From Anaerolineae bacterium (GTDB lineage: Bacteria > Chloroflexota > Anaerolineae > B4-G1 > DUEL01): a stretch of 64,000 nucleotides of DNA. The stretch covers positions 5,328 through 69,327 of the forward strand of contig JAFGEI010000023.1 of the NCBI GenBank assembly GCA_016931695.1. The letters run 5' to 3'. Position 1 is the stretch's first letter; each line of letters begins with the position of its first letter. Below are positions 5,988 through 40,321 of this stretch, one piece after another. Made by a program: the position numbers and the translations under genes. The notes below the pieces were generated by a model, which was given only the letters and a program-made list of their open reading frames with translations, was not told the DNA's origin and ran no database searches.

Positions 5988-7073
5988 TCACGACCACGTT
6001 GGCGGTTCGTCGCGGGAGTGCCGCCAATGTCGCCAGCGCATCCAGGCCAGCAGCCGGGGCGCGCCAACCGTGTACAGCCAGTAAGCCAGCCGCGCGGTGG
6101 GGAAATCATAGGCGCCGATATAGCGCGCCAGTTCGGCGCCAAACCCCTGTTTGAAGCGGTACACCCCCCACATCGGGTCCGCTTCCTCCAACACCTCGGG
6201 CGCGCCCCATAGATCGTAGACGGTGCACCCTCTCTCCTTGGCCCAGCGGATTGCTTCCCACTGGAGCAGGTGATTGGGCATCAGCTCGCGGTGGGCAGGG
6301 CGGGAGGCGCCGTACATGTACCAGGCCCGCTGCCCGTAGCAAAAGAGGATCACCATCGCCACCGGCTCGCCTGAGACTGTGGCGATCAGTGGTTGGGCGC
6401 GCCCGGCCTGGATGAACGAGCCCCACGCATCCCGGTAATAGGCCTCGGGCCGAATCACGAACCGGTTGCGCTGGCTGGTTTCCTCGTACATCCGGTACAG
6501 CAGCGGCAGGTCGTCGCTTCCCCCTTCCTGCACCTGCACGCCCTTCCGCGCCGCAAGGCGGACGTTGTAGCGCCACTTGGACTTGAACCCGGCCATGATG
6601 TCGTCGAGGTCTGGGGTCAGGTCGAGGAGCATCGTGTTGCGGAACTGGACCTGCTCGCGCGAGGGCTGCCATCCCCGCCGGCGCAGCCGTTCGACGACCT
6701 GCTGGCCCGGTGGCAGGTCCAGCGGCACATCGGGATCGATCTTGACGAACAAGGCCCGTTCCCGGCGCGCAAGGTCCTCCAGGTCCGCCAATACCTGTAC
6801 CAATAGCGGCGCGTCGCCATAGTCCAGCAGCGGCCCCTTGGGTACGTACGCCACGCGCACCGGCAGCCGGCCCGCCTGGCGGAGCAGCAGCAGGGCGGCG
6901 GCTTGTGGTTCGCCTGCAACATGCCACAGCCAGCAACTGACCTGCCAGCCTTGCCGTTCCTTCAAAGCTCCCCATTCCCAGCTCTGCAGAACGTGCGGGT
7001 CTGGCAGGCGCTGCAGCACCTGCTCCCATTCTCCCGGGCTCGTTATCTGTCGTTTCTCGAGGTTGTTGGTCAT
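5988..7073 (-). CDS. FemAB family protein (aminoacyl-tRNA-dependent peptidoglycan interpeptide-bridge peptidyltransferase-like)
   Basis: 361 aa. Motifs HVLQSWEWGALKERQGW…, …NHLLQWEAIRWAKERGCTVYDLWGAP are characteristic of the FemAB/FemX family. Convergent with the YfhO gene, with a 15-nt gap. Confidence 0.75.
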   Translation of the reverse strand: MTNNLEKRQITSPGEWEQVLQRLPDPHVLQSWEWGALKERQGWQVSCWLWHVAGEPQAAALLLLRQAGRLPVRVAYVPKGPLLDYGDAPLLVQVLADLEDLARRERALFVKIDPDVPLDLPPGQQVVERLRRRGWQPSREQVQFRNTMLLDLTPDLDDIMAGFKSKWRYNVRLAARKGVQVQEGGSDDLPLLYRMYEETSQRNRFVIRPEAYYRDAWGSFIQAGRAQPLIATVSGEPVAMVILFCYGQRAWYMYGASRPAHRELMPNHLLQWEAIRWAKERGCTVYDLWGAPEVLEEADPMWGVYRFKQGFGAELARYIGAYDFPTARLAYWLYTVGAPRLLAWMRWRHWRHSRDEPPTWS

Positions 7074-7090
7074 TGGTTGCGGTAAATCGC

Positions 7091-7263
7091 CTGGGCAGTG
7101 TAACTGCTCAGCCGGTCGCCCCTGGATGCCCTCCCAAGCCCGGAAAGGAGAAGGACGTGGCTGTCGCGGGCGGCGAAGCCGCCCGCGACAGCCACGTTTT
7201 CCCCCCTTCTCCAGCGCGGGAGGGCATCCAGGCGGGCGGCCTGGGCAGTTACTGAGCAGTTAC
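7091..7263. repeat. palindromic MITE-like repeat, copy A (about 165 bp, imperfect inverted-repeat arms around a perfect 19-bp stem / 3-nt loop hairpin at about 7156-7196)
   Basis: Termini are gtaactgctcag … ctgagcagttac, flanked by ctgggcagt on both sides. The central hairpin is cgtggctgtcgcgggcggc-gaa-gccgcccgcgacagccacg, followed by ttttcccccc. Two homologous copies lie at 38973-39118 (reverse orientation) and 39220-39320. Confidence 0.6.
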
Positions 7264-7368
7264 CAATTGCCTTGAGGGATACCGGGCACCATGATGCCGT
7301 GGAATGGGCAAACTGTCAAGAAGGCCGAGCGGCTGTAGCCGTTGTCATTTGCCTCTCTGGCGCTTTCG

Positions 7369-7376
7369 TGTATACT
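7369..7376 (+). promoter_or_regulatory. possible extended -10 element (tgtatact) upstream of the kinase gene
   Basis: TGnTATACT-like motif about 25 nt upstream of the RBS/ATG at 7400. No convincing -35 element. Confidence 0.25.
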
Positions 7377-7399: not shown

Positions 7400-9115
7400 A
7401 TGAACGACGTGAAGGGAAAATCAATCTGGCGCGCCGAGCCGCGGACAACCGTACAGGTCCAGTTCCCGGATCGGCGGACGTTCGAGGCGCCGCGGGGAAC
7501 CCCGTTAGAGGTCTATGTTAAGGAAGCGTGCAGCAGTTCAGAGGTGCCGGTCATTGCCGCCTCGGTGGACGGCGAGCTGCGCGAGCTGGCTTACCCGCTG
7601 GAGCGAGACGCGCAGGTGACGCCGATCTGGCTCTCTGATTCGGATGGCGTCCGCATCTACCGCCGCTCCCTGGCCTTTCTGATGGTTGCGGCGATTTCGG
7701 AGCTCTACCCCGGCGTTCACATCGTCATCGACCACTCGGTCCCCTTTGGCGGCTACTTTTGCCGCGTGCTGGGCCGCGAGATGTTCTCTGCCGCCGAGCT
7801 GGAATTGATCGAGGAGCGGATGCGGGCCATCGTGGCCGAGAACGCTTCCATCACCAAAGAGCGCGTGCCCATTGGCGACGCCCTGGCAATGTTCATGCAG
7901 CGGGGCCAGGACGACAAGGCGCGTCTCTTTTCCCGGCGCAGCAAGGATTACTTGGTTCTCTATCGGCTGCACCAATACCGCGACTATTTTTACGGCTACA
8001 TGGTCCCCTCCACGGCTTATCTGCCGCACTTTGCGCTGCGGCTTTTGCCGCCAGGATTCATCCTGCAGTATCCCCGTCGCCACCGCCCGACAGAGCTCTT
8101 GCCCTACCAGGAATATCCCCGCCTCAATACGGTTTTTCGCGAGTATAGCGACTGGCTGCAATTGCTGGGGGTGCAGGATGTGAGCTGTCTCAACGAGGCC
8201 GTCGAGCGGCAGCGCATCCAGGAGATCATTCTCGTCTCGGAAGCGTTGCACGAGGGACGGATCGCCCACATCGCGCACGAAATCGCCCGCCAGCGCGAGC
8301 AGGTCCGGCTGGTGCTCATCGCCGGCCCCTCTGCTTCGGGCAAAACGACGTTCTCCAAGCGCTTGTCGGTGCAACTGCTGGCCCACGGCATTCACCCATT
8401 CCCCCTGGCCTTGGACGACTACTTTGTCGATCGGGACAAGACCCCCTGTGACGAGAAGGGGGAGTACGATTTCGAGGTGCTGGAGGCGCTCGACCTGGTC
8501 TATTTCAACCAACAACTGCTGGCCATGCTGGAGGGAAAGCCGGTCGCGATGCCCGCCTTTGATTTTCGCAGCGGCAAGCGCAGTCAAGGGAGAGAGGTGC
8601 AGCTGGGGCCCGACCACGTCATTCTGGTCGAGGGCATTCACGGCCTGAATCCCAACTTGGTCCCGGCGATCCCCAAGGAGTGGGTCTATCGCATCTATGT
8701 CTCGGCGCTGACCCAGTTGAACATCGATCGGCACAACCGCGTGCCCACCACCGACACGCGCCTCATCCGGCGCATCGTGCGCGACGCCACCTTTCGCGGC
8801 TACAGGGCGGAGGAGACGCTAAACCGGTGGGAGAGCGTGCGACGGGGAGAAAAGCGGCATATTTTTCCCTACCAGGAACACGCCGACGTGATGTTCAACT
8901 CGGCGCTGCCTTACGAGATGGCGGTCCTCAAACCGCTGGCGGAACCGCTGTTGCTGCAAATCAAGTCCCCCGGCACGCGCCGGGTCGAATCCAAGCGGCT
9001 GCTGGCCTTCCTGGAGTGGTTTACCGCCTGCCCACCCGATATGGTGCCTGGCAATTCGATCCTGCGCGAGTTTATCGGCGGCTCGATCCTGCACGACTAT
9101 GTCCCCGGCCGGTAG
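7400..9115 (+). CDS. PRK/uridine-kinase-family P-loop kinase with N-terminal TGS and ThrRS-N-like domains
   Basis: Start at ATG 7400 after aggagaaacagc (MNDVKGKSIWRAEPRTT…). The C-terminal half has a Walker A (LIAGPSASGKTTFSKRL) and the phosphoribulokinase/uridine kinase fold (…HVILVEGIHGLNP…). The N-terminal 250 aa resembles the TGS plus second additional domain of ThrRS. Confidence 0.75.
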   Translation: MNDVKGKSIWRAEPRTTVQVQFPDRRTFEAPRGTPLEVYVKEACSSSEVPVIAASVDGELRELAYPLERDAQVTPIWLSDSDGVRIYRRSLAFLMVAAISELYPGVHIVIDHSVPFGGYFCRVLGREMFSAAELELIEERMRAIVAENASITKERVPIGDALAMFMQRGQDDKARLFSRRSKDYLVLYRLHQYRDYFYGYMVPSTAYLPHFALRLLPPGFILQYPRRHRPTELLPYQEYPRLNTVFREYSDWLQLLGVQDVSCLNEAVERQRIQEIILVSEALHEGRIAHIAHEIARQREQVRLVLIAGPSASGKTTFSKRLSVQLLAHGIHPFPLALDDYFVDRDKTPCDEKGEYDFEVLEALDLVYFNQQLLAMLEGKPVAMPAFDFRSGKRSQGREVQLGPDHVILVEGIHGLNPNLVPAIPKEWVYRIYVSALTQLNIDRHNRVPTTDTRLIRRIVRDATFRGYRAEETLNRWESVRRGEKRHIFPYQEHADVMFNSALPYEMAVLKPLAEPLLLQIKSPGTRRVESKRLLAFLEWFTACPPDMVPGNSILREFIGGSILHDYVPGR

Positions 9116-9214: not shown

Positions 9215-10687
9215 CTACGGCGCGTAGCGGAAGGGATGGCGCGCCGCGGCCTTTTCGGCCAAGAGCTCGGGCAGCGTGGGCCGTCCCTCGATGGCCTTGC
9301 GAATTGCCTGGCTCATGGCCTTGAAATTGTTGAACGAAACCCGCTTGGCGATCGAGGCCGCGGGATGGACAAAGGCGTTGACGATCAGGACCAGGTCGTC
9401 CAGCAGCGCGGGCGGCAAAAAGCCGCTGTCGACGTTCTTTTGGATCGCCAGGTTGATGCCCTCGGCAGCGTGCTCGTAGAACAGGCGGCGTTGCTTGGCG
9501 GTGCGGGCCGTCACCGTGGGCACCAGCAGGGTCAATGGGCGCTCGTTGATCACCTGCAGGCCGCGCTCCTCTCCCCACTCGGCCGTGGCGCGTGTGACGG
9601 CGCGGCCCACCGGCCCGTCGCGCAGTCCCACGAGCAGGTCGACGTGGGCGAGTTCTTGGAAGGGCGGGCCGGCGAATCCCTCGCCGACTTTCATCGTCCA
9701 ATTGGCGACGGTGCGCGGCGTTTGCGGCGTGGCCGCGACGTGGGTGGTCACCCGGCGGTCGCCCAGGTCGTAGACGATCTCGGCAGCTGGAATCTTGCCC
9801 AGCGCCTCGAGCTGCATGCGCAGCTCTTCGTAATCCTCGCGCCGAAAGCCGCCGCCGGGCACGATCGGGTGGCGCGAGTTCCCCACCTCCAGGCCCATCA
9901 TCTGCAGCCCCTCCTTGACCGCCTGGGTGGCGCTGCAGCGCACCACGATGCGCACCAGCTTTTGCACCTTTTGTTGCCACTCCTGCGCCGTCGCCAGGTC
10001 GCCCTCCAGCGTGGCCTGGTAGACCTGCTGCCAGATGTCGGGGATCAGGTTGGCGCTGGCCAGGATGGCCCCGTCCGCCCCGGCGGCGAGTGCGGCCTGC
10101 ACCACCTCGTCGTGGCCGACGAAAATGCCCACCCGGCCCTTGACCTTTTCGAACATGGCTTCCATAAACGGCAAGTCGCCCGACGAGTCCTTGATGCCGA
10201 TCGCGTTCTCCAGGTCGAGCAGCAGCCCCTCCGCCGTCCACCAGCGGAAGTGGGTTCCGGCGCACTGGGGGATGTTATAGATCACCAGCGGGAACCCCAG
10301 CTTGTCCAGGGCGCGGTAGTGGTCATAGACCTCGTTGAAGCTGGGCTTGAGAAAGTAGGGGGCGACGACGAGGGCGCCGGCGGCGCCGGCGTCCCGCGCC
10401 CACTCGGTCATTGCCAGCGTCTCTCGCGTCGACGGCATGCCGGTGCCAGCCAGCACCGGCACCCGTCCGCCGGCTTCCTCCACGCAGATTGCGATCGTCC
10501 GTTGCCGTTCCTCAAAGGTCATAGACGAGAACTCGCCGGTCGTGCCGCAGGGCACCAGCCCGTTGACGTGGGGCAGCACGTGGCGGATCAAGGCGCGAAA
10601 GGCCGCCTCGTCGACCCGATCGTCGCTTGTGAAGGGGGTCACCAGGGCGGGGAAAATACCGCGAAACCAATCTGTTTTGTAGCTCAT
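9215..10687 (-). CDS. fusion protein: DHDPS/DapA-family class I aldolase domain (N-terminal) plus formaldehyde-activating enzyme (Fae)-like domain (C-terminal), copy 1
   Basis: 490 aa. The N-terminal 300 aa has DapA/NAL family hallmarks (FPALVTPF…GTTGEF…, Schiff-base Lys in IGIKDSSGDL, …ILASANL…). The C-terminal 170 aa aligns with Methylorubrum Fae (VGEGFAGPPFQELAHVDLLVGLRDGPVG… vs [27 protein letters not shown]…; …ARHPFRYAP vs …ATHPFAANA). Confidence 0.7.
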   Translation of the reverse strand: MSYKTDWFRGIFPALVTPFTSDDRVDEAAFRALIRHVLPHVNGLVPCGTTGEFSSMTFEERQRTIAICVEEAGGRVPVLAGTGMPSTRETLAMTEWARDAGAAGALVVAPYFLKPSFNEVYDHYRALDKLGFPLVIYNIPQCAGTHFRWWTAEGLLLDLENAIGIKDSSGDLPFMEAMFEKVKGRVGIFVGHDEVVQAALAAGADGAILASANLIPDIWQQVYQATLEGDLATAQEWQQKVQKLVRIVVRCSATQAVKEGLQMMGLEVGNSRHPIVPGGGFRREDYEELRMQLEALGKIPAAEIVYDLGDRRVTTHVAATPQTPRTVANWTMKVGEGFAGPPFQELAHVDLLVGLRDGPVGRAVTRATAEWGEERGLQVINERPLTLLVPTVTARTAKQRRLFYEHAAEGINLAIQKNVDSGFLPPALLDDLVLIVNAFVHPAASIAKRVSFNNFKAMSQAIRKAIEGRPTLPELLAEKAAARHPFRYAP

Positions 10688-10695
10688 GTCGCCTC

Positions 10696-12120
10696 CTACG
10701 CTCCGAACGCCTGGGCGATGGCCGCCCGTGCGGCGTCATAGACGCTCTTGTAGAGTGCATTCCGGTCCAACGCCTTGGGGTGGACAGTCGCCAACGCGAC
10801 CATGACCTCCTCCTCGGCTGCCCGCGTGGGGATGGTCTCGCTCTCCAGCGCATCGGCGATCGCCCGGGCCAGGGCGGCCTGGGTGGGGCCATAGATCATG
10901 TTGGCCTGGCGCAGGTTCTGTTGCGGCAGGGTCGGCAGCAGCAGCGTCGCCGGGTAGACGGTGAGGCCGGGTTCCAGGATCGTCGTCAGCGCCTCCCGGC
11001 CGTGGAGCGGGTAGGTCAGTTGCATGGCGTAGGCATCGCCCAGGGGGGTATCCTTGCCGCCGGCAACCAGGTCGATCTGCACCTGGTTCAGGCCCTCGCC
11101 GGCGGCGCCTGTGCCCACCCGCAGGCCGTTTGTGCGAACAGCCTCGGCGGACAGTTCCAGGTCGCCAAAGCGGTCCTCCAGCTGGCCGCCGGGGAACGCG
11201 ACGGGCGTGTCGGCAGCGGCGACCCGGCCCAGCTTTTCCAGTTCCAGACGGATCTCGGCCTGCGTCTCGTGGATCAGGGCGCCGCCCACGCTTTTCAGCG
11301 GCCTGCGCGGCCGTCCCACCGGCACGCCCATCATGTTGAGCGCGGCCTTGACCGCCACGCCGCCGCCGTGGCGGCAAAAGATGCGCGACAGCTTTTGCAC
11401 CTGCCGTTGGAGCGCCCGCGCCTCGTCCAGCCGCCCCTCCCGCACGTGCTGCAGCACCTGCTGCCACACCTCGGGATAGACCTGGGCGCTGGCGAGGATC
11501 ATGCCGCCCACCCCGCCGGCGAGGGCGGGGACCACCACCTCGTCGTGGCCGATGAGCAGGTCGATGCGGTCGCCGGCGTACTCGAGCAGCTCCATCGTAT
11601 AGGTCAGGTTGCCGGACGAGTCCTTCAATGCCACGACGTTGGGCAGGTCGGCCAAATCCTCCACCACCGTGCGCGGCAGGTAGGCGTCCACTACCTGCGG
11701 GATGTTGTAGAGGATGATGGGGATGTCGACCTGGGCAGCGATGTCGTAATAGTGCTGGTAGAGGCCCTTGTCGGAAGGGTGGAGGAAGTAGGGGGTGACG
11801 ACGAGAACCGCGTCGGCGCCAGCCTCGCGCGCATCGGCGGCCAGGGCGAGGGCCTGGGCCGTGCCGGAGGCGCCGCAGCCGGCGATGACCAGCTTGTCTC
11901 GCACCTCGTTGCGGGCGATCTCGACCATCCGGCGCTGCTCGGCGCGGGTCAGGTAGGGAAACTCGCCCGTCGTTCCGCTGGTGACGACCCCGTCGACGTG
12001 CGGCAGGACGTGGCGGATCAGGCCGCGAAAGGCCTGTTCGTCCAAATCTTCTGTCTGGCGGTCAAAGGGCGTCACCAGGGCGGGGAATATGCCCCGCAAG
12101 TTCAATTCATCTTGGCGCAT
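10696..12120 (-). CDS. fusion protein: DHDPS/DapA-family aldolase domain plus Fae-like domain, copy 2 (divergent paralog of 9215..10687)
   Basis: 474 aa. The N-terminus is FPALVTPFDRQTEDLDEQAFRGLIRHVLPHVDGVVTSGTTGEF…, with an active-site-type Lys in VALKDSSGNL. The C-terminal domain is again Fae-like (…GLRVGTGAAGEGLNQVQIDLVAG…VHPKALDRNALYKSVYDAARAAIAQA). There is an 8-nt gap to the paralog downstream and a 10-nt gap to the GH57 gene upstream, all on the same strand. Confidence 0.7.
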   Translation of the reverse strand: MRQDELNLRGIFPALVTPFDRQTEDLDEQAFRGLIRHVLPHVDGVVTSGTTGEFPYLTRAEQRRMVEIARNEVRDKLVIAGCGASGTAQALALAADAREAGADAVLVVTPYFLHPSDKGLYQHYYDIAAQVDIPIILYNIPQVVDAYLPRTVVEDLADLPNVVALKDSSGNLTYTMELLEYAGDRIDLLIGHDEVVVPALAGGVGGMILASAQVYPEVWQQVLQHVREGRLDEARALQRQVQKLSRIFCRHGGGVAVKAALNMMGVPVGRPRRPLKSVGGALIHETQAEIRLELEKLGRVAAADTPVAFPGGQLEDRFGDLELSAEAVRTNGLRVGTGAAGEGLNQVQIDLVAGGKDTPLGDAYAMQLTYPLHGREALTTILEPGLTVYPATLLLPTLPQQNLRQANMIYGPTQAALARAIADALESETIPTRAAEEEVMVALATVHPKALDRNALYKSVYDAARAAIAQAFGA

Positions 12121-19880: not shown

Positions 19881-21262
19881 AATTCGGCCTTTTTGAGAAT
19901 CTCGTCCAGGATATCGGCGCCGGTGCGGTTGCTCTGCCCATTGATCGCCACGCGCAGGTCGCGGTATAGACCGGGGGTCAGGTCCTCGCCGGTGGCGTAG
20001 CACGTGAGGGCGATGGCGCGGACCCCGTTGGCGATGCCATAGCGCGGCTCATACCGTTCCAGGCGCTCGAAGAAAAAGGTACAGCTGGCATACATCCGTT
20101 GCCGATAGAACTGGGCTTCCAGCAGCCACAACATTCGCTGTGCTCCCTCGGCACCAAGTTTACTCAGGCCGTGCCGGGCCAGCAGTTCCGGGCCCTCGAT
20201 CTCTCCCATCACCACGGCAATGTACTCGTCCCGCAGCGCCCAGGGTTCCAGGCCCATCTTGAGCGCCTCGCGTTCGTAGGCCGCGTCCAGGTTGCAGGCC
20301 AGGTTATCCAGCGCGCGCCGCAGGGCGCCTTTCCAGCGGCTGTCGCCCTCGGTACACTCGCATCCCACCACCCAGCGGGCCAGCCCGTGCGGGCAGCTCC
20401 AGGACGAGTTCTGCACGATCTCGATCTCTGTTTTCGGAGGGTGGTCGCGCAGGTAGCGGCCCAAGGTCGTGATGGTGTAGCCGTGTTGTTCGCCGATTTC
20501 CAGGATGCGCTGCAGCACCGCGGCCCCCTGTGGGCGGTGGTGGCCAAAAGTCTCGCCGTCGGTGGCCGCGAGCAGCAGCCCGTCGCGCTGGCAGCGCCAC
20601 CTGACGTGGTCCCAAATCCATCCGTCCACGTTGCCCGGGTCCGGCATGTCGAAGGAGAGGGTGTTGGAGAGGTGGCGATCGCGCACAAAGACCGCGATTT
20701 TCTCTTCTTCGCCGCGGATGCGCACCCAATAGGGGCCGGCGCCGTTCTCCATGCTTCCCCGCACCTGTTCGTCGGAGAGGATGGTAAAGCGGATACCTTC
20801 TGAAACCAGGACCTGCAGCGTCGCCTCGTCGACCGCCATCTCTGGCAGCCACATCCCCTCGGGGCGGTGGCCGAAGCGATGGGTAAAGCTGGCGATGCCC
20901 CAGCGGACCTGGCAGACCTTGTCCCGCCGCCGCGCCAGGGGGAGGATCGTGTGGTGGACCGGCTGAGCCAGTCCGTTGCTGACGCCGTGGGCGGCATAGT
21001 GGGCCCGTTCGCCGGCGACGATCCGCTCGTACGTGGCAGGGGCGTGCTCGTCCAGCCAACGGGCCAGCGTTCCCCCCAGGTTAAAGCTGATCCGTTCGAA
21101 ACTGCCGGCTTCGGCCAGGGGAGTATAGCTCTCGGCGGCGATGCGCTCGTTCCAGTTGGCGTACGGGGCGGCGTCCGGCTCGCGGGAGATGTGATTGGTG
21201 AACGGGTCCGCTCGCGGCGGCTGGTAAAAATGGCCGTGGACACAGAAATAGCAATCAGACAT
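19877..21262 (-). CDS. glycoside hydrolase family 57 protein (alpha-amylase/4-alpha-glucanotransferase-like)
   Basis: Start at ATG 21262 after aaagga (MSDCYFCVHGHFYQPPRADPF…). Conserved GH57 region …GMWLPEMAVDE…, …ATDGETFGHH…. 461 aa. Confidence 0.75.
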   Translation of the reverse strand: MSDCYFCVHGHFYQPPRADPFTNHISREPDAAPYANWNERIAAESYTPLAEAGSFERISFNLGGTLARWLDEHAPATYERIVAGERAHYAAHGVSNGLAQPVHHTILPLARRRDKVCQVRWGIASFTHRFGHRPEGMWLPEMAVDEATLQVLVSEGIRFTILSDEQVRGSMENGAGPYWVRIRGEEEKIAVFVRDRHLSNTLSFDMPDPGNVDGWIWDHVRWRCQRDGLLLAATDGETFGHHRPQGAAVLQRILEIGEQHGYTITTLGRYLRDHPPKTEIEIVQNSSWSCPHGLARWVVGCECTEGDSRWKGALRRALDNLACNLDAAYEREALKMGLEPWALRDEYIAVVMGEIEGPELLARHGLSKLGAEGAQRMLWLLEAQFYRQRMYASCTFFFERLERYEPRYGIANGVRAIALTCYATGEDLTPGLYRDLRVAINGQSNRTGADILDEILKKAEL

Positions 21263-21269
21263 CGGCTCG

Positions 21270-22190
21270 TCAGTCTGTCCTTTGCGAGATTTGCCAGCCC
21301 CAATTGCTGGCGGCGGCAACCAGGCTGGTGTAGACCAGGCCCGGCAGGATCGAGATGAGCAGGGTGAGGATGAAGGGATCGGTCTCCATTCCCGCTCGCG
21401 CGCTGAGAAAAACGAACAGCGCAAAGGCACCCCCTGCCCAACCGCCCAGGCCGACGATGGCGCCCATCTTTTGCGCCTCTTTGCTGCTCAAAGTGCGCCC
21501 GCCTTTTTTGGCCTCGTGCCCGACCATCCAGCCCGCGAGCAGGCCCAAGGGAAATCCGGCCAGAACGCCCACACAACAGATCGCGCCCAACCCGGTGACG
21601 ATGGCGTTGACGACCGCCAGGATCAGCCCGAGCTGCATGGTAGATGCAGCCATGCTGGCCGGGACAGGGCTGGGACGGGATGGCGCTGGCCTGGGCGGTT
21701 GGGGAGCGGGCCGGCTGGGCTGGGGTGTGGGGCGGGTGCGCACCGCTGGGGGCGGCGGGTACAGCTTGGCTAGCGAGGACTGGGCCAGGCGGACGATTTC
21801 TTCGTCGTCGGCGACGTCGCGCGCCTGCTCAAACTCCCACCGGGCCTGATCGATCGATCCCTGCCTCAGGGCGTAGTCGCCGCGGGCAATGTGAGACTGG
21901 GCGAGCTCGTCGTCCGCTGAAGGCTCGCCGGGCGGCGGCTCCGGCAAGGACGGCGCGAGGGGTTCCGCCGGGGGAGCGACCGGCGCTTCTTGCGGCGCGA
22001 ACGGTTCCACCATCAGGGTGGGCATCTCGATCGACGCTGGTTCTGGCCAGTCGAACAGGTCGTCCAGCTTGGGGATTTCTACCTCGGGCGGTTTCGGCCA
22101 CTCGAACTGGTCGCTGCCCAGGGCAAAGCCGCACTGCTGGCATGTCGTGGCCTGCGGGTCGTTTTCCGTGTTGCAGATGGGACATTTCAT
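21270..22190 (-). CDS. zinc-ribbon domain membrane protein (N-terminal C4 zinc ribbon, TPR-like segment, Pro-rich linker, C-terminal polytopic TM domain)
   Basis: Start at ATG 22190 (MKCPICNTENDPQATTCQQCGF…). Pro-rich PPPPAVRTRPTPQPSRPAPQPPRPAPSRPSP. C-terminal glycine-zipper TM segments. Confidence 0.55.
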   Translation of the reverse strand: MKCPICNTENDPQATTCQQCGFALGSDQFEWPKPPEVEIPKLDDLFDWPEPASIEMPTLMVEPFAPQEAPVAPPAEPLAPSLPEPPPGEPSADDELAQSHIARGDYALRQGSIDQARWEFEQARDVADDEEIVRLAQSSLAKLYPPPPAVRTRPTPQPSRPAPQPPRPAPSRPSPVPASMAASTMQLGLILAVVNAIVTGLGAICCVGVLAGFPLGLLAGWMVGHEAKKGGRTLSSKEAQKMGAIVGLGGWAGGAFALFVFLSARAGMETDPFILTLLISILPGLVYTSLVAAASNWGWQISQRTD

Positions 22191-22195
22191 CGCCT

Positions 22196-24343
22196 TCACT
22201 CCGCGTACTGCCGGGCTGCGAGGCGCAGCGCCAGCGCCCACGTCCCGCCTGCCGGCAGGTCGAGTTGCCAGATCAACAGCGTGCACGTCCCCTGGTAGGA
22301 CCGCTCGTAGCCGGCTTCCGAATTTGTGACGGCTTCCAGGGGGAAATGCCACAGCGTGGCCGGGCGGTCGGCGTGCAACGAGACCTCGCCCGCCAGATCG
22401 GGCAGGGTCGAGCCGACGACCAGCTGCGAGACCCCGTCGCGCTGGCCTGCAGCGGCCAGGCCGAGGCGCTCACCGTCGACGCGCAGGACGCCGTACTCGC
22501 TGTTGCCGCCGACGATGCCCCAGTTCCACTCGACGCCCAGGCGGAGGGAGAGGGGTTCGGCGCCCGCGTTTGTGACCTGGTAGTCGATGGTCAGCTCGTC
22601 GCTGCCGGCGGCGGCGGACAACCGTTTCTCTAGCCGTACCGGCCCGGCGGCCCCAACGCGGCCCACGCGGAACAGGGTCAGGCTGGCGCCCGGCTCCTGC
22701 TCGTCGATGCGCACTCCATACGGCTGGGCGAGAAAATCGCCGCGCTCCGCGCCACCGCCGTGGGAAAAGGACTCGCAGGTTGTGCCGGGGTGGAGAAAGT
22801 GGTCCAGCAGCGCCAGGCGGCGGTACGAATCGTGCGCGATATAGTCCGCGACGTCGCGTTCCTTGACCCGGATTGCAGCTGGCGGGGCTTTTTCGCCCGG
22901 CAGGACCAACCGCCCCTCGGCTGTCGCAGCGAGCAGTTCGTCGTGGTACCCCTCGCGGCGGCGGGTCATGCTGTTCAGCAGGTTGTAGCGCTGCCAGCGC
23001 CAGTCCCATTCCACCAGCGCCCCGCCGTAGCCTGGCTTGCAGACTAGCAGGTGCCGGTCCGTGTTCACCACCACCTCGGCCTGTCCATCACCGTCCACGT
23101 CATACTGCTCGACCTCGGCCCAGGGAGCGGCGCCGAAGCGGGCCTGGTCGGCCAGGTGCTCGGCGGCGATGAGGTGCGCATAGTTGGCGACGCGGATGTG
23201 AAAGAGATAGATGCCGCCAAAAAGGCCGTGCCAGTAGCCGCAGTTGCACTGGGACGACCAGAGGTGATCCAGCGCCCGCGTTTTTTTCTCTCCCTCGGCC
23301 ATCGCGTGTACCTTGCGGCTGACCCAGAGCATCTTTTTGTGCATCTGGTTCACCTCGTCGTAGCGGGCGATGAAGGAGCGCCAGTGCCCACCCTTGACAA
23401 AGCGCAGCACGTCCTGCCGTCCCTGCTCTGCCAACTGCTGCCGGATCCGCTGCAGCGCGGCAAAGTCGTCTGGCGGCAGCGCCCACTGCATCATCTCCTC
23501 GTAGGACGCGCAGGGCAAATAGACGCGGCCGAGCGGCGGCTGGCCGGCGGCAATCTCTCCCAGCGGGCGCGTGTCGAGCCAGTCGCTGTTGGCCTCCAGG
23601 GCGGTAAAGAACCGCTCGACCCACGCCTCTCGCTCCCAGCAGAGGTCCCACGTCCCGGGCCAGAGGCCGAACTTTTCGCCGTCGTCCCCCATCACGGCGA
23701 CCCTGGCCTGCCCGGCGCTGTTTTCGGGCGCCGCGTCTGCCTGGGTGCGCAGCCAGTCGATCACCTCTTCCACCGGGTGCCAGGGGATGGCGTAGCGCAG
23801 GTACATCGAGTTGCCAAATACCTGCAGCGCGTGGCCCTGCTCCTCGGTTACGTAGGCGCCAAAGAGATCGTCGTCGGTGAGACCGACCATCTTGAAATGG
23901 GTGTCGTCGAGCAGGGTGTAGCGGATGCCGGCCTCGGACAGAGACTTGGGGAGGTGGGGCTCCCAGACCCGCTCGGCCAACCACGCGCCTGTTGGCCGGC
24001 GTCCAAAGCGCTGCTGCAGAAAACGGTTCGTCTTGTGCAGCTGGCCGGCCTTGTCGGCGTCGGGGATCGCGGTCAGGATCGGCTCATAGTAGGCGCCGCC
24101 GAGCATCTCGACCTGGCCGCGGTCGACCAGGGCGGTCAGGCGCTGCAAGTGGTCGGGCTGGTGGGCGGACAGCCAGTCCAGCAGCGGGCCAGTATAGTGA
24201 AAGGCCATGCGGATGCGCGGGTGGCGCTCCAACGCTGCCAGCAGCGGGCTGTAGGCCTGTTGGACTGCCAGGGCAAAGACGTGGCCGAAATTGCCCACAG
24301 GCTGGTGGTTGTGGATGACCAGGGATAACGTGATCCGGCCCAT
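22196..24343 (-). CDS. large glycoside hydrolase family 57 protein (4-alpha-glucanotransferase/amylopullulanase-like, with C-terminal accessory domains)
   Basis: Start at ATG 24343, overlapping the glgA stop (TGATG) (MGRITLSLVIHNHQPVGNF…). GH57 motifs …WLAERVWEP…, …GDDGEKFGLWPG…. 715 aa. Confidence 0.75.
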   Translation of the reverse strand: MGRITLSLVIHNHQPVGNFGHVFALAVQQAYSPLLAALERHPRIRMAFHYTGPLLDWLSAHQPDHLQRLTALVDRGQVEMLGGAYYEPILTAIPDADKAGQLHKTNRFLQQRFGRRPTGAWLAERVWEPHLPKSLSEAGIRYTLLDDTHFKMVGLTDDDLFGAYVTEEQGHALQVFGNSMYLRYAIPWHPVEEVIDWLRTQADAAPENSAGQARVAVMGDDGEKFGLWPGTWDLCWEREAWVERFFTALEANSDWLDTRPLGEIAAGQPPLGRVYLPCASYEEMMQWALPPDDFAALQRIRQQLAEQGRQDVLRFVKGGHWRSFIARYDEVNQMHKKMLWVSRKVHAMAEGEKKTRALDHLWSSQCNCGYWHGLFGGIYLFHIRVANYAHLIAAEHLADQARFGAAPWAEVEQYDVDGDGQAEVVVNTDRHLLVCKPGYGGALVEWDWRWQRYNLLNSMTRRREGYHDELLAATAEGRLVLPGEKAPPAAIRVKERDVADYIAHDSYRRLALLDHFLHPGTTCESFSHGGGAERGDFLAQPYGVRIDEQEPGASLTLFRVGRVGAAGPVRLEKRLSAAAGSDELTIDYQVTNAGAEPLSLRLGVEWNWGIVGGNSEYGVLRVDGERLGLAAAGQRDGVSQLVVGSTLPDLAGEVSLHADRPATLWHFPLEAVTNSEAGYERSYQGTCTLLIWQLDLPAGGTWALALRLAARQYAE

Positions 24344-35061: not shown

Positions 35062-36459
35062 CTACCGGCGGGCCCGATCTCCGAAACCAAAAATAGTTGG
35101 CGGCAAGTGGATGCCTGCAGCCTCGATCTTGTCCATAAACTTGGGGCGCACGCCGGTTGGACGAAGCTGGCCGATCACTTTACCGCCCTCAAAGCCCGAT
35201 TGTTCGAACTTGAACACCTCGGTGCGCACGATGGTATCCCCCTCCATGCCCTCGATGGCGGTCATGCTGACCACCTTGCGGGAGCCATCGCGGAAGCGTT
35301 CCAGCTGGATGATGACGTCGATCGCCGCGGCGATCTGCTCGCGGATCGCCCGGTGGGGCAGCTCCATGCCTGCCATCAGCACCATGTTCTCGATGCGGGC
35401 CATGGCCTCGCGGGCGTTGTTGGCGTGAATGGTCGTCATCGAGCCCTCGTGGCCGGTATTCATCGCCTGGAGCATGTCAAAGGCCTCGGAGCCACGGCAC
35501 TCGCCCACGACGATGCGATCCGGCCGCATCCGCAGCGAGTTGATCACCAGGTCGCGGATGGTGACCTCGCCCCGTCCCTCGATGTTGGGGGGGCGGGATT
35601 CGAGCGTCACCACGTGCTCCTGCTGGAGCTGCAGCTCGGCAGCATTCTCGATGGTAATGATCCGTTCATCAAAGGGGATGTAGCTGGAGAGGATGTTGAG
35701 AAAGGTCGTCTTGCCCGTGCCTGTGCCGCCCGAGATCATGATGTTTAGCGCCGCCTGCACGCAAGCCTTGAGGAACTCGACTCCTTCGGCGGTGATGGCG
35801 CCCAATTCGATCAGCTTTTCGGCCGTGAGGGGGATTCTAAAGAACTTGCGGATGGTCAGCACCGGGCCGACCAGTGAGAGGGGCGGGATGATGGCGTTGA
35901 CGCGGGAGCCGTCCTGCAGCCGCGCATCCTGGTACGGCACGCTCTCGTCGATGCGCCGCCCCAGGGGGGCCACGATGCGCTCGATGATGCGCATCAGGTG
36001 CTCTTCTGACTCGAAAACATTCGTGACCCGCTCGATCTTGCCCTTGCGCTCGATGTAAATGTTCTTGGGGCCATTGACCATGATCTCGGTGATCTCGTCG
36101 CTGGCCAGGAGTGGCTCCAGCGGCCCCAGACCGAGAATCTCGGCCACAATCTGCTCGAAAAGGCGCTCCCGTTCGGCCCGGCTGAGGGCGATGCGCTCTT
36201 CGGCCAACACTGCCTCGAACATCTCGCGAATGGTCCGCCGCACTTCGTCCTGCTGGCTGATGTCCATTGTCGGATCCAATTCGTCGATCAGCTTGTTCTG
36301 GATCCTCGTCTTGAGGTCGCGGTAGGCGTCACGAACGGTGGAAGGCGCTGCACGGCGAACCCGATCCTGCGTTGGCGGCGGAGTTGGCGCCTGCCCTCTT
36401 TGTTGCTGGGGTTGCTGCTGCTGCTGCTGTCCTTTTTCAATCCTTCTTAGTAGCGACAT
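35062..36459 (-). CDS. cpaF: CpaF/TadA family secretion ATPase
   Basis: Start at ATG 36459 after ggtgagagagga ([20 protein letters not shown]…). Walker [10 protein letters not shown], and the …[12 protein letters not shown]… VirB11-like core. Confidence 0.85.
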
Positions 36460-36515
36460 TCCTCTCTCACCTTCCTTCACCCTGCGCGGATGTCAACCAG
36501 CGGTTCCAGCCCGGC

Positions 36516-37787
36516 TCAGAAAATCCGGCCCAACATGCGTCGGCTATCTTCGGCCTCCAGGTCTTGTTCCGATTCCGTGGCTTCAAATTGCTCCACTTTT
36601 TCTACCAGCACCGCGGCCAACTGGCCAAATGCCTGTGCCAGCGGTCTTGCCACTTCTTCTGTCACAATCGGCAGCCCTCTGTTGGCTGCGATCACCCCAG
36701 CACGCTCGTCAAAGGGCAGGTGGATCGTGGCTGGCAGCAGCGCTTTTTCGATCTGGTCGATGCGGATCCCGCCGCGGATGTCCGCGTTGTTGATCACCAG
36801 GGCCAGCTTGTCCATCGGGTATCCCAGCTGGCTGGCCAGGTCCATAAAGTTTCGCGCGTCCTTGATGCTGGGAATCAGGGGCGTAATCACCATCAGGATG
36901 AACGTCGCCTCATCCAGCAGGGTGATTGTCACGTCGTCGACCCAACTCCAGGTGTCGGCGATGATCCAGTCAAACTCGTCGATCATTTTTCGCAAGATGG
37001 TGCGGATGCGCGGATTTCCCTCTTCATCCCGCCCCATCATCGCTTCAGCCATCTCGGGATTGGGCGGCGCCAGCATGGCCTTTACGCCCGAAGGGTGTGG
37101 GGTCATCACGCTGTTCAGCAGTTCCCCGTCGAGCATGTCGAGCCGGTCCGCCAGGTCGGCGATGGTGCGGGTTGGGTGGAGGTTGAACATGACAGCCACG
37201 TCGCCGAACTGGAGATTGCCGTCGAGAACAGCGATCTTTTGGGTTGCCCCCAGTCGCACCTGGAGGGCGACGGCCAGGTTGATGGCAATCATCGTGCAAC
37301 CGACTCCGCCCTTGGGAGCAAAGACGGTGATGAGCCGGCCGCGCCGGCCGCGCCGCCGCGGCGCCCCGGTAGCCACATCGACCGGCGCAGGCGCAATCTG
37401 CGCAGCGTGGGCCACGCCGATTTCATATACCCGGCGGATGGTGCTCATCAATTCGTCGCCGCTGGGCGGCTTGACCAGGAAATCCCGCGCCCCGGCCGCC
37501 ATTGCGCGACGCATGTAGCCGGTCTCTCCCTGCACGGAGAGGATAATGATCTGGGCCGATGGAACGCGCTGCTTGATCTGCTCGGTAGCGGTGATGCCAT
37601 CGATACCGGGCAAGTTGATGTCCATCAGGACGATGTCAGGCTTTGTCTCGCGGGCAAGCTGTACGCCATCCTCGCCGGTTGCCGCAGCGCCGACGACCTC
37701 AATGTCGGGGTCAAAGGAAAGCAGCTTGCGTAAATTCTCCCGCGTTTCTGGAATGTCATCGACGATCAGGACGCGAATTTTCGCCAT
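36516..37787 (-). CDS. cpaE: response-regulator receiver domain fused to CpaE-type (MinD/ParA-like) ATPase; pilus assembly protein CpaE
   Basis: N-terminal REC domain (MAKIRVLIVDDIPETREN…DIVLMDINLPGIDG…) and the deviant Walker A APKGGVGCT. Confidence 0.8.
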   Translation of the reverse strand: MAKIRVLIVDDIPETRENLRKLLSFDPDIEVVGAAATGEDGVQLARETKPDIVLMDINLPGIDGITATEQIKQRVPSAQIIILSVQGETGYMRRAMAAGARDFLVKPPSGDELMSTIRRVYEIGVAHAAQIAPAPVDVATGAPRRRGRRGRLITVFAPKGGVGCTMIAINLAVALQVRLGATQKIAVLDGNLQFGDVAVMFNLHPTRTIADLADRLDMLDGELLNSVMTPHPSGVKAMLAPPNPEMAEAMMGRDEEGNPRIRTILRKMIDEFDWIIADTWSWVDDVTITLLDEATFILMVITPLIPSIKDARNFMDLASQLGYPMDKLALVINNADIRGGIRIDQIEKALLPATIHLPFDERAGVIAANRGLPIVTEEVARPLAQAFGQLAAVLVEKVEQFEATESEQDLEAEDSRRMLGRIF

Positions 37788-37788
37788 A

Positions 37789-38859
37789 CTACTCGGCCTG
37801 CTGTGAAGATTGTGCTGCCTCTTGAATTGCTCTCAGGATATAGGATTCTACCAGGGGATTCACCGTCGGTGCCGTGACCCCGAAGGGAAGCTTGGGCGGC
37901 TGTTCGATGGCGTAGCGGGTGACGATATAGTCCAGGGTCACAGCTGTCGTCGTCGCGACGTCCTGGTCGTAAATCCCCCGCATCACCAGGTCGACGTCAG
38001 CCTGAAGCTCCAACAGCGCCTTGAGCACCAGGGTGTCCTGGATGTCGAGAAGCAGGACGACCACGTCTTGTGAAGGTATCTGGGGGGGCGGCGGGGTGAC
38101 TTCTTCCTCTGTCACAACCTGTTCCTCTACCAGTTCGATCTGCGGCACCGTTTCCTGGGGGACGTAGGGGCCGATGCGCAGCACTTCGGCATCCTGGATC
38201 GTCATCTGGGCAAAGTAGCCGGTCTGGCTCAACCCGCTGGGATAGACCATCACCGCCTGGCCCGAGGGAAGCAGCTCCATCCGCCCCATCACGCCCTCGC
38301 ACGTCGCCCCCTCCGGGCACTGGAGAATCACCCAGCGGTTGGGCAGCAGGCTCTGGAAATCTTCGTCCAGGTCAATCACCCGCCACGACGCGATAATGTC
38401 CACCCGGTCGCCCGGCTGGAGGTACCAGCCGATGGCGCTCAACATGTCGAGGGGGATGGCGATGGCCCGTTTGCCGGTCGGAATCTGTATGGCCAGGTCG
38501 GACCCTGGGGCTCTTACCTCTGGCCCTTCGCCCAGTTGATTCAGGTTGATCGGCACGCCCTGGCCGATAAAGCCGAGCACTGTCAGGCCATAGATGTCTT
38601 CCAGGTCGGTGACGTACAAATCCGGCAGCCGATCCTCCGGCCATGGCCGCAGTTCGACCAGCCCCTCCGAGATCACCATTCCGCGGTTCAGGTTGTTGCG
38701 CGCAATCGCAATCGAGACCATTGGGATCGGTGTCGGCGTCGGCGTGCCGACCTCAAAGACCTCATCCTCACGATCGCGGCTCAGCAGGAGGGCGGCAATG
38801 ACCAGTATGACTGCGACAACGACCAGCCCAATCAAGATGATTACGCGTTTACGGCCCAT
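37789..38859 (-). CDS. cpaB: Flp pilus assembly protein CpaB (SAF/RcpC domain)
   Basis: Start at ATG 38859 after gaggagg (MGRKRVIILIGLVVVAVILV…). The 69-codon upstream extension in the track ORF is rejected. Confidence 0.75.
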   Translation of the reverse strand: MGRKRVIILIGLVVVAVILVIAALLLSRDREDEVFEVGTPTPTPIPMVSIAIARNNLNRGMVISEGLVELRPWPEDRLPDLYVTDLEDIYGLTVLGFIGQGVPINLNQLGEGPEVRAPGSDLAIQIPTGKRAIAIPLDMLSAIGWYLQPGDRVDIIASWRVIDLDEDFQSLLPNRWVILQCPEGATCEGVMGRMELLPSGQAVMVYPSGLSQTGYFAQMTIQDAEVLRIGPYVPQETVPQIELVEEQVVTEEEVTPPPPQIPSQDVVVLLLDIQDTLVLKALLELQADVDLVMRGIYDQDVATTTAVTLDYIVTRYAIEQPPKLPFGVTAPTVNPLVESYILRAIQEAAQSSQQAE

Positions 38860-38972
38860 ATGTGCCTCCTCATTCGCGTTCTTGGATCCAGGAAGCCGAC
38901 CATACCACTTGCCGCCTGTTACCTCAGAGCGATGGCTGTGTTTCCCGGTGGCTTCCTGTTTTTTGTACTCTC

Positions 38973-39118
38973 GTAACTGCTCGGGCGGCCCGCCGCTAGA
39001 TGCTCTCCCGCGCTGGAGAAAGGGGGAGTGGGTGTTGCGGGCGGTTTTGCCGCCCGCAACACCCACATGTTTCCCCTTTTCCGGGCTTGCATCAGGGGGC
39101 GACCGGCTGAACAGTTAC
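38973..39118. repeat. palindromic MITE-like repeat, copy B (reverse orientation relative to copy A)
   Basis: gtaactgctcgg … ctgaacagttac termini. Internal cgcgctggagaaaggggg, central hairpin gtgggtgttgcgggcgg-ttttg-ccgcccgcaacacccac, …ccgggcttg…gggcgaccggctga. Its reverse complement aligns along the whole of copy A. Lies about 115 nt upstream of the cpaB start. Confidence 0.6.
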
Positions 39119-39219
39119 GCACTCTCAATCAATAATAGTGTGTTTCGGGGAAATGTCAAGTAGGACGATCGGCCTATTGCCTGCCCACAAGCCCGCTTGC
39201 AAGTGGTCCGGAGGGATTT

Positions 39220-39320
39220 GTAACTGCTCGGCGGGTCGCCCCTGGATGCCCTTCCAAGGCCGGAGAGGTGGCGGGGAGGCACGGCGCGGTGTTTGCTGGC
39301 GCAGTTTTTGCCGCGCCTGG
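39220..39320. repeat. palindromic MITE-like repeat, partial copy C (left arm plus GC hairpin)
   Basis: gtaactgctcggcgggtcgcccctggatgcccttccaaggccggagagg… is about 85% identical to the first 50 nt of copy A, followed by the ggcgcgg…ccgcgcc hairpin. Confidence 0.5.
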
Positions 39321-39332
39321 GGCAGGAGGAGG

Positions 39333-39372
39333 GAAGAAAAGGGGGACGTCGGCAGCTTTGCCCGCGTCCCCC
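39333..39372 (-). terminator. intrinsic-terminator-like hairpin downstream of porB (read on minus strand: gggggacg-N16-cgtccccc followed by TTTTCTTCCC)
   Basis: 8-bp GC stem with a U-rich tract immediately 3' on the minus strand, 15-50 nt past the porB stop. Confidence 0.45.
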
Positions 39373-39385
39373 TTTATCCGTGCAG

Positions 39386-40321
39386 TTATGCTGCTCCACA
39401 CAGTCGGAGCAGGTGCTCCCAGCGGCGGTCGACCTCCTTCTGCATCACGTCGATCAGGTAGCGGTTCTCGGGGCGGAAGAGGTGGCGGAAGCGGCCCTGG
39501 CGCTTGAGCCAATCTTCTACCGGGCGCTTTTCCTTGGGCGTGTAACTCAGCCGCCACTCGCCGTTCTCGACCTCAAAGAGCGGCCAATAGCAGCAATCGA
39601 CTGCCAGCTGGGTGATCTCGATGGTTTCGTCGGTGTTGTGGCGCCAGCCGCGGTTGCAGGAAGAGAGAACGTTCATAAAGGCAGCGCCGCCGCAGTTGAC
39701 CGCCTTGCGCGTCTTTTCCATCAGGTCCCGCCACTTGCTTGGGGCGGCCTGGGCCACGTAGGGGATGTTGTGGGCAGCCATGATGGCGGTCAGGTCTTTG
39801 CGGTGCTGCTGCTTGCCGGGCACGACCTTGCCGGCCGGCGACGTCGTGGTGTGGGCGCCCAGCGGGGTGGCGCTGGAGCGCTGGATGCCGGTGTTCATGT
39901 AGGCGCCGTTGTCGTAGCAGACGTAGAGGAACTGGTGCCCGCGCTCGACGGCGCCAGAGAGGGCTTGCAGGCCGATGTCGTAGGTGCCGCCGTCGCCGCC
40001 AAAGGCCAGGAACTTGATGTTCTGCTCGGGAATTTTGCCCTGGCGGACCATGCTGCGGTAGGCGGCTTCGACGCCGCTGATGGTCGAAGCGGCATTCTCG
40101 AACGCGTTGTGGATCCACGGCACGCGCCAGGCGGTGTAGGGGTAGATCGTCGTCGCGACCTCCAGGCAGCCAGTGGCGTTGGCGATAACCACCGGTTCGT
40201 CGATCGCTGCCAGCATCTGCCGCACGATGATCGAGGCCCCGCAGCCGGCGCACAAGCGATGTCCGGGCGTCAGTCGTTCGACATTCTTTGCCAGTTCTTT
40301 GGGTGTCAGTTTTGTCGCCAT
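39386..40321 (-). CDS. porB: 2-oxoacid (pyruvate):ferredoxin oxidoreductase beta subunit (TPP-binding)
   Basis: 311 aa. …LCAGCGASI…, …GGDGGTYDIG… (TPP-binding GDG). Confidence 0.85.
   Translation of the reverse strand: MATKLTPKELAKNVERLTPGHRLCAGCGASIIVRQMLAAIDEPVVIANATGCLEVATTIYPYTAWRVPWIHNAFENAASTISGVEAAYRSMVRQGKIPEQNIKFLAFGGDGGTYDIGLQALSGAVERGHQFLYVCYDNGAYMNTGIQRSSATPLGAHTTTSPAGKVVPGKQQHRKDLTAIMAAHNIPYVAQAAPSKWRDLMEKTRKAVNCGGAAFMNVLSSCNRGWRHNTDETIEITQLAVDCCYWPLFEVENGEWRLSYTPKEKRPVEDWLKRQGRFRHLFRPENRYLIDVMQKEVDRRWEHLLRLCGAA

Follow-up and report, generated by a model that had tools for sequence, protein, structure and literature searches.

A non-autonomous palindromic element with ISBst12-type ends, probably inserted in the leader of a FemAB-like gene of an Anaerolineae bacterium

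Insertion sequences of the IS66 family have as their hallmarks ends of the form 'GTAA...' and 8-bp direct repeats (PMC11946415), the ends beginning with GTAAGCG or GTAACCG (PMC11946415, PMC12888890). ISDge4 of Deinococcus geothermalis, which belongs to the ISBst12 group of this family, is 1469 bp long, encodes a single 449-aa transposase, is present in eight or nine copies and is bounded by GTAACTGCTCAGCA and GTGACTACTCAGCA; its transposition was shown experimentally, together with an 8-bp direct repeat (PMC12898284, PMC8369957). An IS66-type element of Geobacillus kaustophilus pHTA426, which we used as a further reference, measures 1635 bp between its ends GTATCTATTCAGCCC and GTAACTATTCAGCCC and is flanked by a perfect 8-bp duplication (GACGAGTT). 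The product of its sole gene matches PF03050 (DDE_Tnp_IS66) with E = 2e-64, and a zf-IS66 domain is found in it as well.

The locus described here lies in a 64-kb stretch of DNA from an Anaerolineae bacterium (hereafter the window, meaning the whole 64,000 nucleotides that were analysed), between a FemAB-like gene of the cell wall and a divergently transcribed nucleoside kinase gene (Table 1). We consider, with a probability of roughly 0.8, that the palindromic sequence found there, called copy A, is a non-autonomous MITE with ends of the ISBst12 group (IS66 family), which was mobilised in trans and inserted in the leader of the FemAB-like gene. This assignment is based on the terminal inverted repeats, the 8-bp duplications around copies A and B, the lack of coding capacity, the ISBst12-like ends and the absence of the element from a relative, and it upholds the MITE-like mobile element that a first-pass annotation of the same DNA had proposed. 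It would add a MITE family with ISBst12-group ends in an uncultured member of the Chloroflexota, the kind of element itself being ordinary.

Table 1. Features of the element copies, of the neighbouring genes and of related elements (positions refer to the window, except for the gut-virome copies, which are numbered within their own records)
Feature	Position	Strand	Remarks
Copy A (probable MITE)	7100..7252	+	153 bp, near-perfect foldback palindrome; copy B homology over exactly 7100-7252
Left terminal inverted repeat, copy A	7100..7113	+	GTAACTGCTCAGCC
Right terminal inverted repeat, copy A (inner)	7241..7252	+	CTGGGCAGTTAC; 92% complementary; copy B alignment ends there
Left putative 8-bp target-site duplication, copy A	7092..7099	.	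TGGGCAGT; read from sequence
Right putative 8-bp target-site duplication, copy A	7253..7260	.	TGAGCAGT; 7/8 match to 7092-7099
Central perfect stem, copy A	7155..7197	.	20 bp (7155-7174 / 7178-7197), 3-nt loop
Copy B (probable MITE)	38973..39118	-	146 bp, 79.5% identical to copy A, inverted
Left putative target-site duplication, copy B	38965..38972	.	GTACTCTC; 7/8 match to 39119-39126
Right putative target-site duplication, copy B	39119..39126	.	GCACTCTC
Copy C	39220..39268	+	about 50-nt arm, 90% identical to the left arm of copy A
FemAB-like gene	5988..7073	-	Pfam PF02388, E = 9e-55; ATG 26 nt from the left end of the element
Nucleoside kinase gene (PRK family)	7400..9115	+	
Predicted sigma-70-type promoter	7291..7319	-	TTGACA-17-CATCAT, 10/12 positions; reads through copy A into the FemAB-like gene
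Predicted kinase promoter	7349..7376	+	TTGCCT-16-TATACT; downstream of copy A
cpaB (Flp pilus assembly)	37789..38859	-	GGAGG ribosome-binding site upstream
Predicted promoter	39132..39159	-	TTGACA-16-TATTAT, 11/12 positions; reads through copy B into cpaB
Gut-virome MITE copies	L058 503-644; L059 4310-4453; L060 7487-7629; L066 1126-1189; L069 21-160		

The palindrome is real and is not a product of chance. A repeat search of the copy A region returned nested arm pairs and an inverted repeat that matches at 12 of 12 positions, GTAACTGCTCAG (7100-7111) against CTGAGCAGTTAC (7252-7263), and the palindrome of about 165 bp with 12-bp terminal inverted repeats that had been reported earlier is indeed long and near-perfect from 7100 to 7263. 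Its boundaries nevertheless have to be redrawn, since the homology between copies A and B ends exactly at 7252 and the element is thus confined to 7100-7252 (153 bp), with ends GTAACTGCTCAG and CTGGGCAGTTAC that are complementary at 11 of 12 positions. Once the ends are fixed at GTAAC...GTTAC, the outer repeat at 7252-7263 resolves into C7252, the right duplication TGAGCAGT and the flanking TAC at 7261-7263, which together mimic a second right end of copy A; the 12/12 pair exists, with duplication and flank as its outer right member. The central perfect stem, given before as 19 bp, was measured at 20 bp. The window contains the 12-nt end motif, with one mismatch or none, at six places, where 0.08 would be expected. 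Elsewhere in the window, a 37-nt near-palindrome (78% complementary, with a 2-nt gap) lies at 62200-62275 within a glycosyltransferase gene.

The sequences that flank the element also required reinterpretation. The 9-bp direct flank of the first-pass annotation pairs the left duplication with the inner right end of the element: its repeat, CTGGGCAGT, is a portion of an exact 11-nt direct repeat, GCCTGGGCAGT, present at 7089-7099 and at 7239-7249, and the second copy lies inside the element as then delimited, where it forms the inner right end. The flanks proper are the 8-bp repeats TGGGCAGT and TGAGCAGT, so that the proposal to examine the flanks as target-site duplications failed for the 9-bp version and succeeded for 8-bp repeats, which match at 7 of 8 positions in copy A and likewise in copy B. 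With the boundaries fixed, a match of this quality has a chance probability of about 4e-4 per copy, both pairs of duplications being imperfect.

To the left, copy A is bordered by 11 nt that reproduce exactly the right end of the element itself, and the right flank repeats this end once again (7089-7099, 7239-7263). Reassembled from its two sides, the target would read GCC-TGGGCAGT-TAC, and these 14 nt equal the right end of copy A. The site of insertion thus looks like a lone element end, to judge by its sequence, and simple random insertion fails to explain flanks that resemble the element's own right end. Either targeting of insertion to element ends or a leftover of two ends once joined to each other could account for this oddity.

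When the 64 kb were searched by BLAST with the element as query, two full copies and one arm came to light. The related copy B noticed earlier is present at 38973-39118; it carries the same ends as copy A in the end-motif scan and is 69-74% identical to it when aligned by BLAST in direct orientation. At the locus of copy C (39220-39268) neither a matching right end nor a target-site duplication was found, and this copy is therefore regarded as a lone arm. We also considered whether copy C might be complete, with its end at CAGTTAT (39383-39389), and rejected this candidate, which has no flanking repeat and an unrelated interior. Beyond copy C comes the terminator hairpin of the upstream pyruvate:ferredoxin oxidoreductase operon (39339-39378), and the CAGTTAT motif overlaps the last stop codon of this operon (39386-39388).

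Searches for relatives of the element as a gene, as a known RNA or as a repeat were negative. Its translated reading frames, searched in concatenated form against 5.8 billion clusters, gave no protein homologue, and one translated frame gave no match among 1.84 billion representatives, in line with the earlier statement that the element has no coding potential; at 153 bp it also keeps within the size of a MITE, below about 300 bp. No tRNA was found in it. No Rfam family scored above its gathering threshold, and the Rfam matches at E < 1 were generic miRNA-precursor hairpin models only, far below their thresholds. BLASTN of the element against plasmids gave no match. An arm-pattern scan with the query GTAACTGYYCRGSSSGNCN{6,8}GATGC returned 19 loci in 185,579 reference genomes and 32 in the JGI metagenomes, all of them single chance matches that BLAST could not extend, and none in viral contigs. 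Since these scans missed the copies present in the window itself, the source genome is absent from the collections scanned. No transposase was detected in the 64-kb window, whether every called gene was compared with Pfam or the Geobacillus transposase served as a tblastn query, and the partner transposase is consequently hypothetical. A literature search found no described MITE in Chloroflexota.

The affiliation of the element was read from its ends. Its left end, GTAACTGCTCAGCC, matches the ISDge4 end GTAACTGCTCAGCA at 13 of 14 nt, a comparison that spans 14 nt (ISDge4 end from PMC12898284), and matches the IS66-type end of the pHTA426 element at 12 of 14 nt. The ends of the window element read GTAACTG and share the GTAA start of the IS66 family. 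Taken together, the end match and the 8-bp duplications place the window elements within the ISBst12-group end type. Viral contigs scanned for this pair of ends yielded a further MITE family, AT-rich, unrelated in sequence and 64-144 bp long, with ends GTAACTGTTCAGAGCC and with 8-bp duplications in all five complete copies, three of them perfect. Relatives of this gut-virome family are present in four human-faecal phage records. Ends of the GTAAC type thus belong to a widespread group of transposases that make 8-bp duplications, and MITEs have been produced with them more than once. More generally, an orphan repeat can be attributed to a family of insertion sequences from its short end motifs and from how long the duplication around it is, with no transposase in view.

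The closest relatives of the kinase that could be retrieved are 77-79% identical to it. One of them (77%), on a JGI metagenome contig designated L054, keeps the divergent FemAB-like/kinase pair with a spacer of 188 nt, compared with 326 nt in the window, and alignment of the two spacers revealed no counterpart of the 153-bp element in that of L054. The element thus appears to be absent at the orthologous site, in a comparison that is made between species and is not base-precise. Two conserved blocks are shared by the window and L054, CCATGATGCCG..GGA....CTGTCAAGA and TTGCCTCTC.G.CGCTTTCGTGTATACTT, and they coincide with both promoters predicted by the consensus scan. Two other contigs, L020 (kinase 79% identical) and L053, were discarded as empty-site comparators because their gene order differs. 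Across about 76 kb of DNA of these relatives (L020, L053, L054, L056 and L057) no copy of the element was found.

All promoters discussed here are predictions of a consensus scan. The hexamers of the FemAB-like and kinase promoters are conserved in L054 (9895-9965), while their spacers and the remaining intergenic region have diverged, which looks like the pattern of functional promoters. Strong predicted promoters on the minus strand precede copies A and B at a distance of 7 to 32 nt, and 0.1 to 0.2 such sites occur in shuffled sequence; the one of cpaB is about 7 nt upstream of the end of copy B, and the cpaB start codon follows 113 nt beyond this copy. Removal of the element and of one copy of the duplication would shorten the FemAB-like leader from about 211 nt to about 50 nt. 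These data strongly indicate that copy A was inserted between the promoter and the start codon of the FemAB-like gene, lengthening its leader, and that copy B was inserted likewise in the leader of cpaB. What both full copies have in common, judging from the predicted sites, is a position in a 5' leader just downstream of a predicted strong minus-strand promoter.

This arrangement differs from the one given by the first-pass annotation, in which the element was consistently placed upstream of the kinase and of cpaB. The spacing of 137 nt from the start codon of the kinase (ATG at 7400) is correct; however, the predicted kinase promoter lies on the 3' side of copy A, so that the kinase transcript should not contain the element, and it is the FemAB-like leader in which copy A resides. 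The statement that both copies share an orientation relative to their genes is right as geometry, A(+) corresponding to B(-) with the kinase on the plus and cpaB on the minus strand, and yet the genes that it links to the copies are not the right ones; A and B lie inverted relative to each other and are thus transcribed in opposite orientations. A promoter role had been suggested too, and the consensus scan detected no promoter inside the element. The possibility that the element carries the promoters to its insertion sites was rejected on two grounds, namely that a 28-nt similarity between the promoter regions runs in one direction at the two loci, whereas the elements are inverted, and that the FemAB-like promoter is present in L054 without the element. 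The similarity in question joins 7306-7333 of the FemAB-like promoter to 39147-39173 of the cpaB promoter, in both cases the -35 region with the sequence upstream of it, and amounts to 82% identity over 28 nt. It may represent a promoter context typical of the lineage or the site of a shared regulator, and is not part of the element.

For annotation, the elements explain two unusually long leaders, those of the FemAB-like gene and of cpaB, and open reading frames that run through them are artefacts. The longest open reading frame of cpaB (37789-39066, 425 aa, GTG start) begins inside copy B and is such an artefact, the real start being the ATG at 38859 that is preceded by GGAGG. In another part of the window, codon-position GC supports no gene with confidence over about 2.2 kb (20003-22196), where there are only overlapping open reading frames on both strands. 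Beyond the kinase gene, 9215-12120 holds two tandem paralogues, each with a dihydrodipicolinate-synthase-family domain fused to a formaldehyde-activating-enzyme (Fae) domain.

Folded as RNA, the palindrome of copy A forms a single long hairpin of -130.7 kcal/mol, compared with -79.6 +/- 4.7 kcal/mol for shuffled sequences (z = -11). In folds of the complete FemAB-like and cpaB leaders, the element closes upon itself as an isolated hairpin and leaves the start codons free. In the consensus structure that RNAalifold gives for the two copies, three pairs are changed on both sides. As such a consensus omits broken pairs by construction, the fold of copy A itself was tested on the sequence of copy B: 42 of its 63 pairs are unchanged, three persist with one partner altered and three with both partners altered, eight are broken and seven fall in gaps. 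The fold energy is -89.8 kcal/mol for B versus -123.3 kcal/mol for A. The central stems of the two copies differ at two pairs, both compensated, with none broken. The outer arms thus appear to be decaying, with the central stem as the only part that is fully kept. The compensation is weak evidence, since only two sequences are compared, and descent from different master copies could explain it equally well. A terminator search flagged the central stem of copy A on the minus, that is the transcribed, strand, with a weak U tract (CCUUCUCCUU), and did not flag copy B; both copies lie upstream of genes and not at their 3' ends.

These observations suggest the following scheme. A DDE transposase of the ISBst12 group, encoded elsewhere in the genome, would bind the GTAACTGCTCAGCC ends and move the 153-bp element, duplicating 8 bp of the target. 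In a transcript, the element would form an extended hairpin within the 5' leader that closes upon itself and leaves the start codons outside. Such a hairpin could alter the stability of the mRNA, serve as a substrate of RNase III or cause partial termination of transcription, and through any of these routes it might influence the expression of the FemAB-like gene and of cpaB.

Whether such an effect has been put to use leads to the alternatives. The MITEs could have been co-opted as 5'-leader hairpins that tune the expression of genes of the cell envelope (FemAB-like) and of the Flp pilus (cpaB) in this Anaerolineae lineage, with selection keeping the central stem intact, which seems to us a rather doubtful extension of the transposition scheme; were it true, the insertion of copy A beside its own end would hint at end-directed targeting by ISBst12-type transposases. 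Put as a rival, the locus would hold a former MITE that is now a domesticated cis-regulatory RNA hairpin, selected for mRNA stabilisation, RNase III processing or attenuation. The position of both full copies just 3' of strong predicted promoters, the two compensated pairs of the central stem and the terminator-like character of this stem in copy A all argue for domestication. Yet A and B face opposite ways relative to their transcripts, the broken and gapped pairs and the weaker fold of B resemble decay, the relatives do without the element, and there are two copies only, with poor U tracts, so we hold domestication to be unlikely. The palindromic character of the whole element might also recall REP/BIME units or IS200/IS605-type palindromes that are moved as single strands by a tyrosine (HUH) transposase, and compensated stem changes would suit an enzyme that recognises hairpins. 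Such systems, however, make no target-site duplication, while 8-bp repeats flank our element, and the ends match those of DDE-type IS66/ISBst12 elements. Neither a RAYT nor a TnpA gene was found in the 64-kb window. REP units are described as 20-40 bp long with GTAG/CGTC tags (PMC3733652), compared with 153 bp and no such tag here. A single-stranded mode of this kind is accordingly very improbable.

Two further readings would deny that the element is mobile at all. An ancestral, immobile host structure, acting as a bidirectional terminator or insulator between divergent genes, would agree with a central hairpin that is strong, rich in GC and tailed by pyrimidine-rich sequence on either strand, and with copy C adjoining a genuine operon terminator. 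A location between divergent starts needs no terminator, though, the orthologous spacer of L054 lacks the structure, and it recurs at unrelated sites, bounded by inverted repeats and by duplications of the flank; we give this reading even less credence than a single-stranded mode of transposition. Finally, the palindrome might be an assembly artefact of a metagenome-assembled genome. Position 1 of the Logan contig L075 corresponds to position 7128 of the window, and because this contig stops 29 nt into copy A, the interior of A comes from one assembly. The break fits either a repeat-induced or a hairpin-induced cause. The Logan assembly of run SRR13394437, made independently, is identical to the window over 36065-39895 and reproduces copies B and C at 100%, while copy A shares their architecture and has arms that differ from each other, unlike those of an artefactual foldback. 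An artefact is therefore next to inconceivable, and a non-autonomous MITE, mobilised in trans, is the reading that we retain.

Compared with described systems, this MITE is close at its termini to ISDge4, with which it shares the terminal sequence GTAACTGCTCAGC (13/14 nt) and 8-bp target duplications. ISDge4 and the pHTA426 element are autonomous, 1.5-1.6 kb long and equipped with one transposase gene, whereas the window element is geneless at 153 bp, and beyond about 15 nt its foldback interior is unrelated to either. The hosts differ as well, being Chloroflexota (Anaerolineae) for the window element, Deinococcota for ISDge4 and Bacillota for the pHTA426 element. The gut-virome MITEs share the 12-nt end GTAACTGTTCAG, are of comparable size and have 8-bp duplications, but their AT-rich interior is unrelated and not palindromic over its whole length, and their hosts are different, probably gut bacteria.

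Likeness of another sort, in size and setting, is found among other bacterial repeats. ERIC/IRU elements are imperfect palindromes of about 127 bp that occur in transcribed intergenic regions of enterobacteria and fold as RNA hairpins. Their sequence is unrelated to that of the window element, the host group is another one, and no link of ERIC to IS66-type ends is known. The Correia elements (CREE) of Neisseria resemble the window element in being MITEs of about 100-155 bp that adjoin genes and are co-transcribed with them. They differ in their 26-bp inverted repeats of unrelated sequence, in their TA duplication and in the promoters that can be created at their ends, compared with an 8-bp duplication, IS66-like ends and no internal promoter detected in the window element, which is thus not a CREE. 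The hairpins of CREE bind RNase III and are cleaved or protected, altering the expression of neighbouring genes (PMC2649163), and by analogy CREE are a possible functional model for the leader hairpin that the window element would form.
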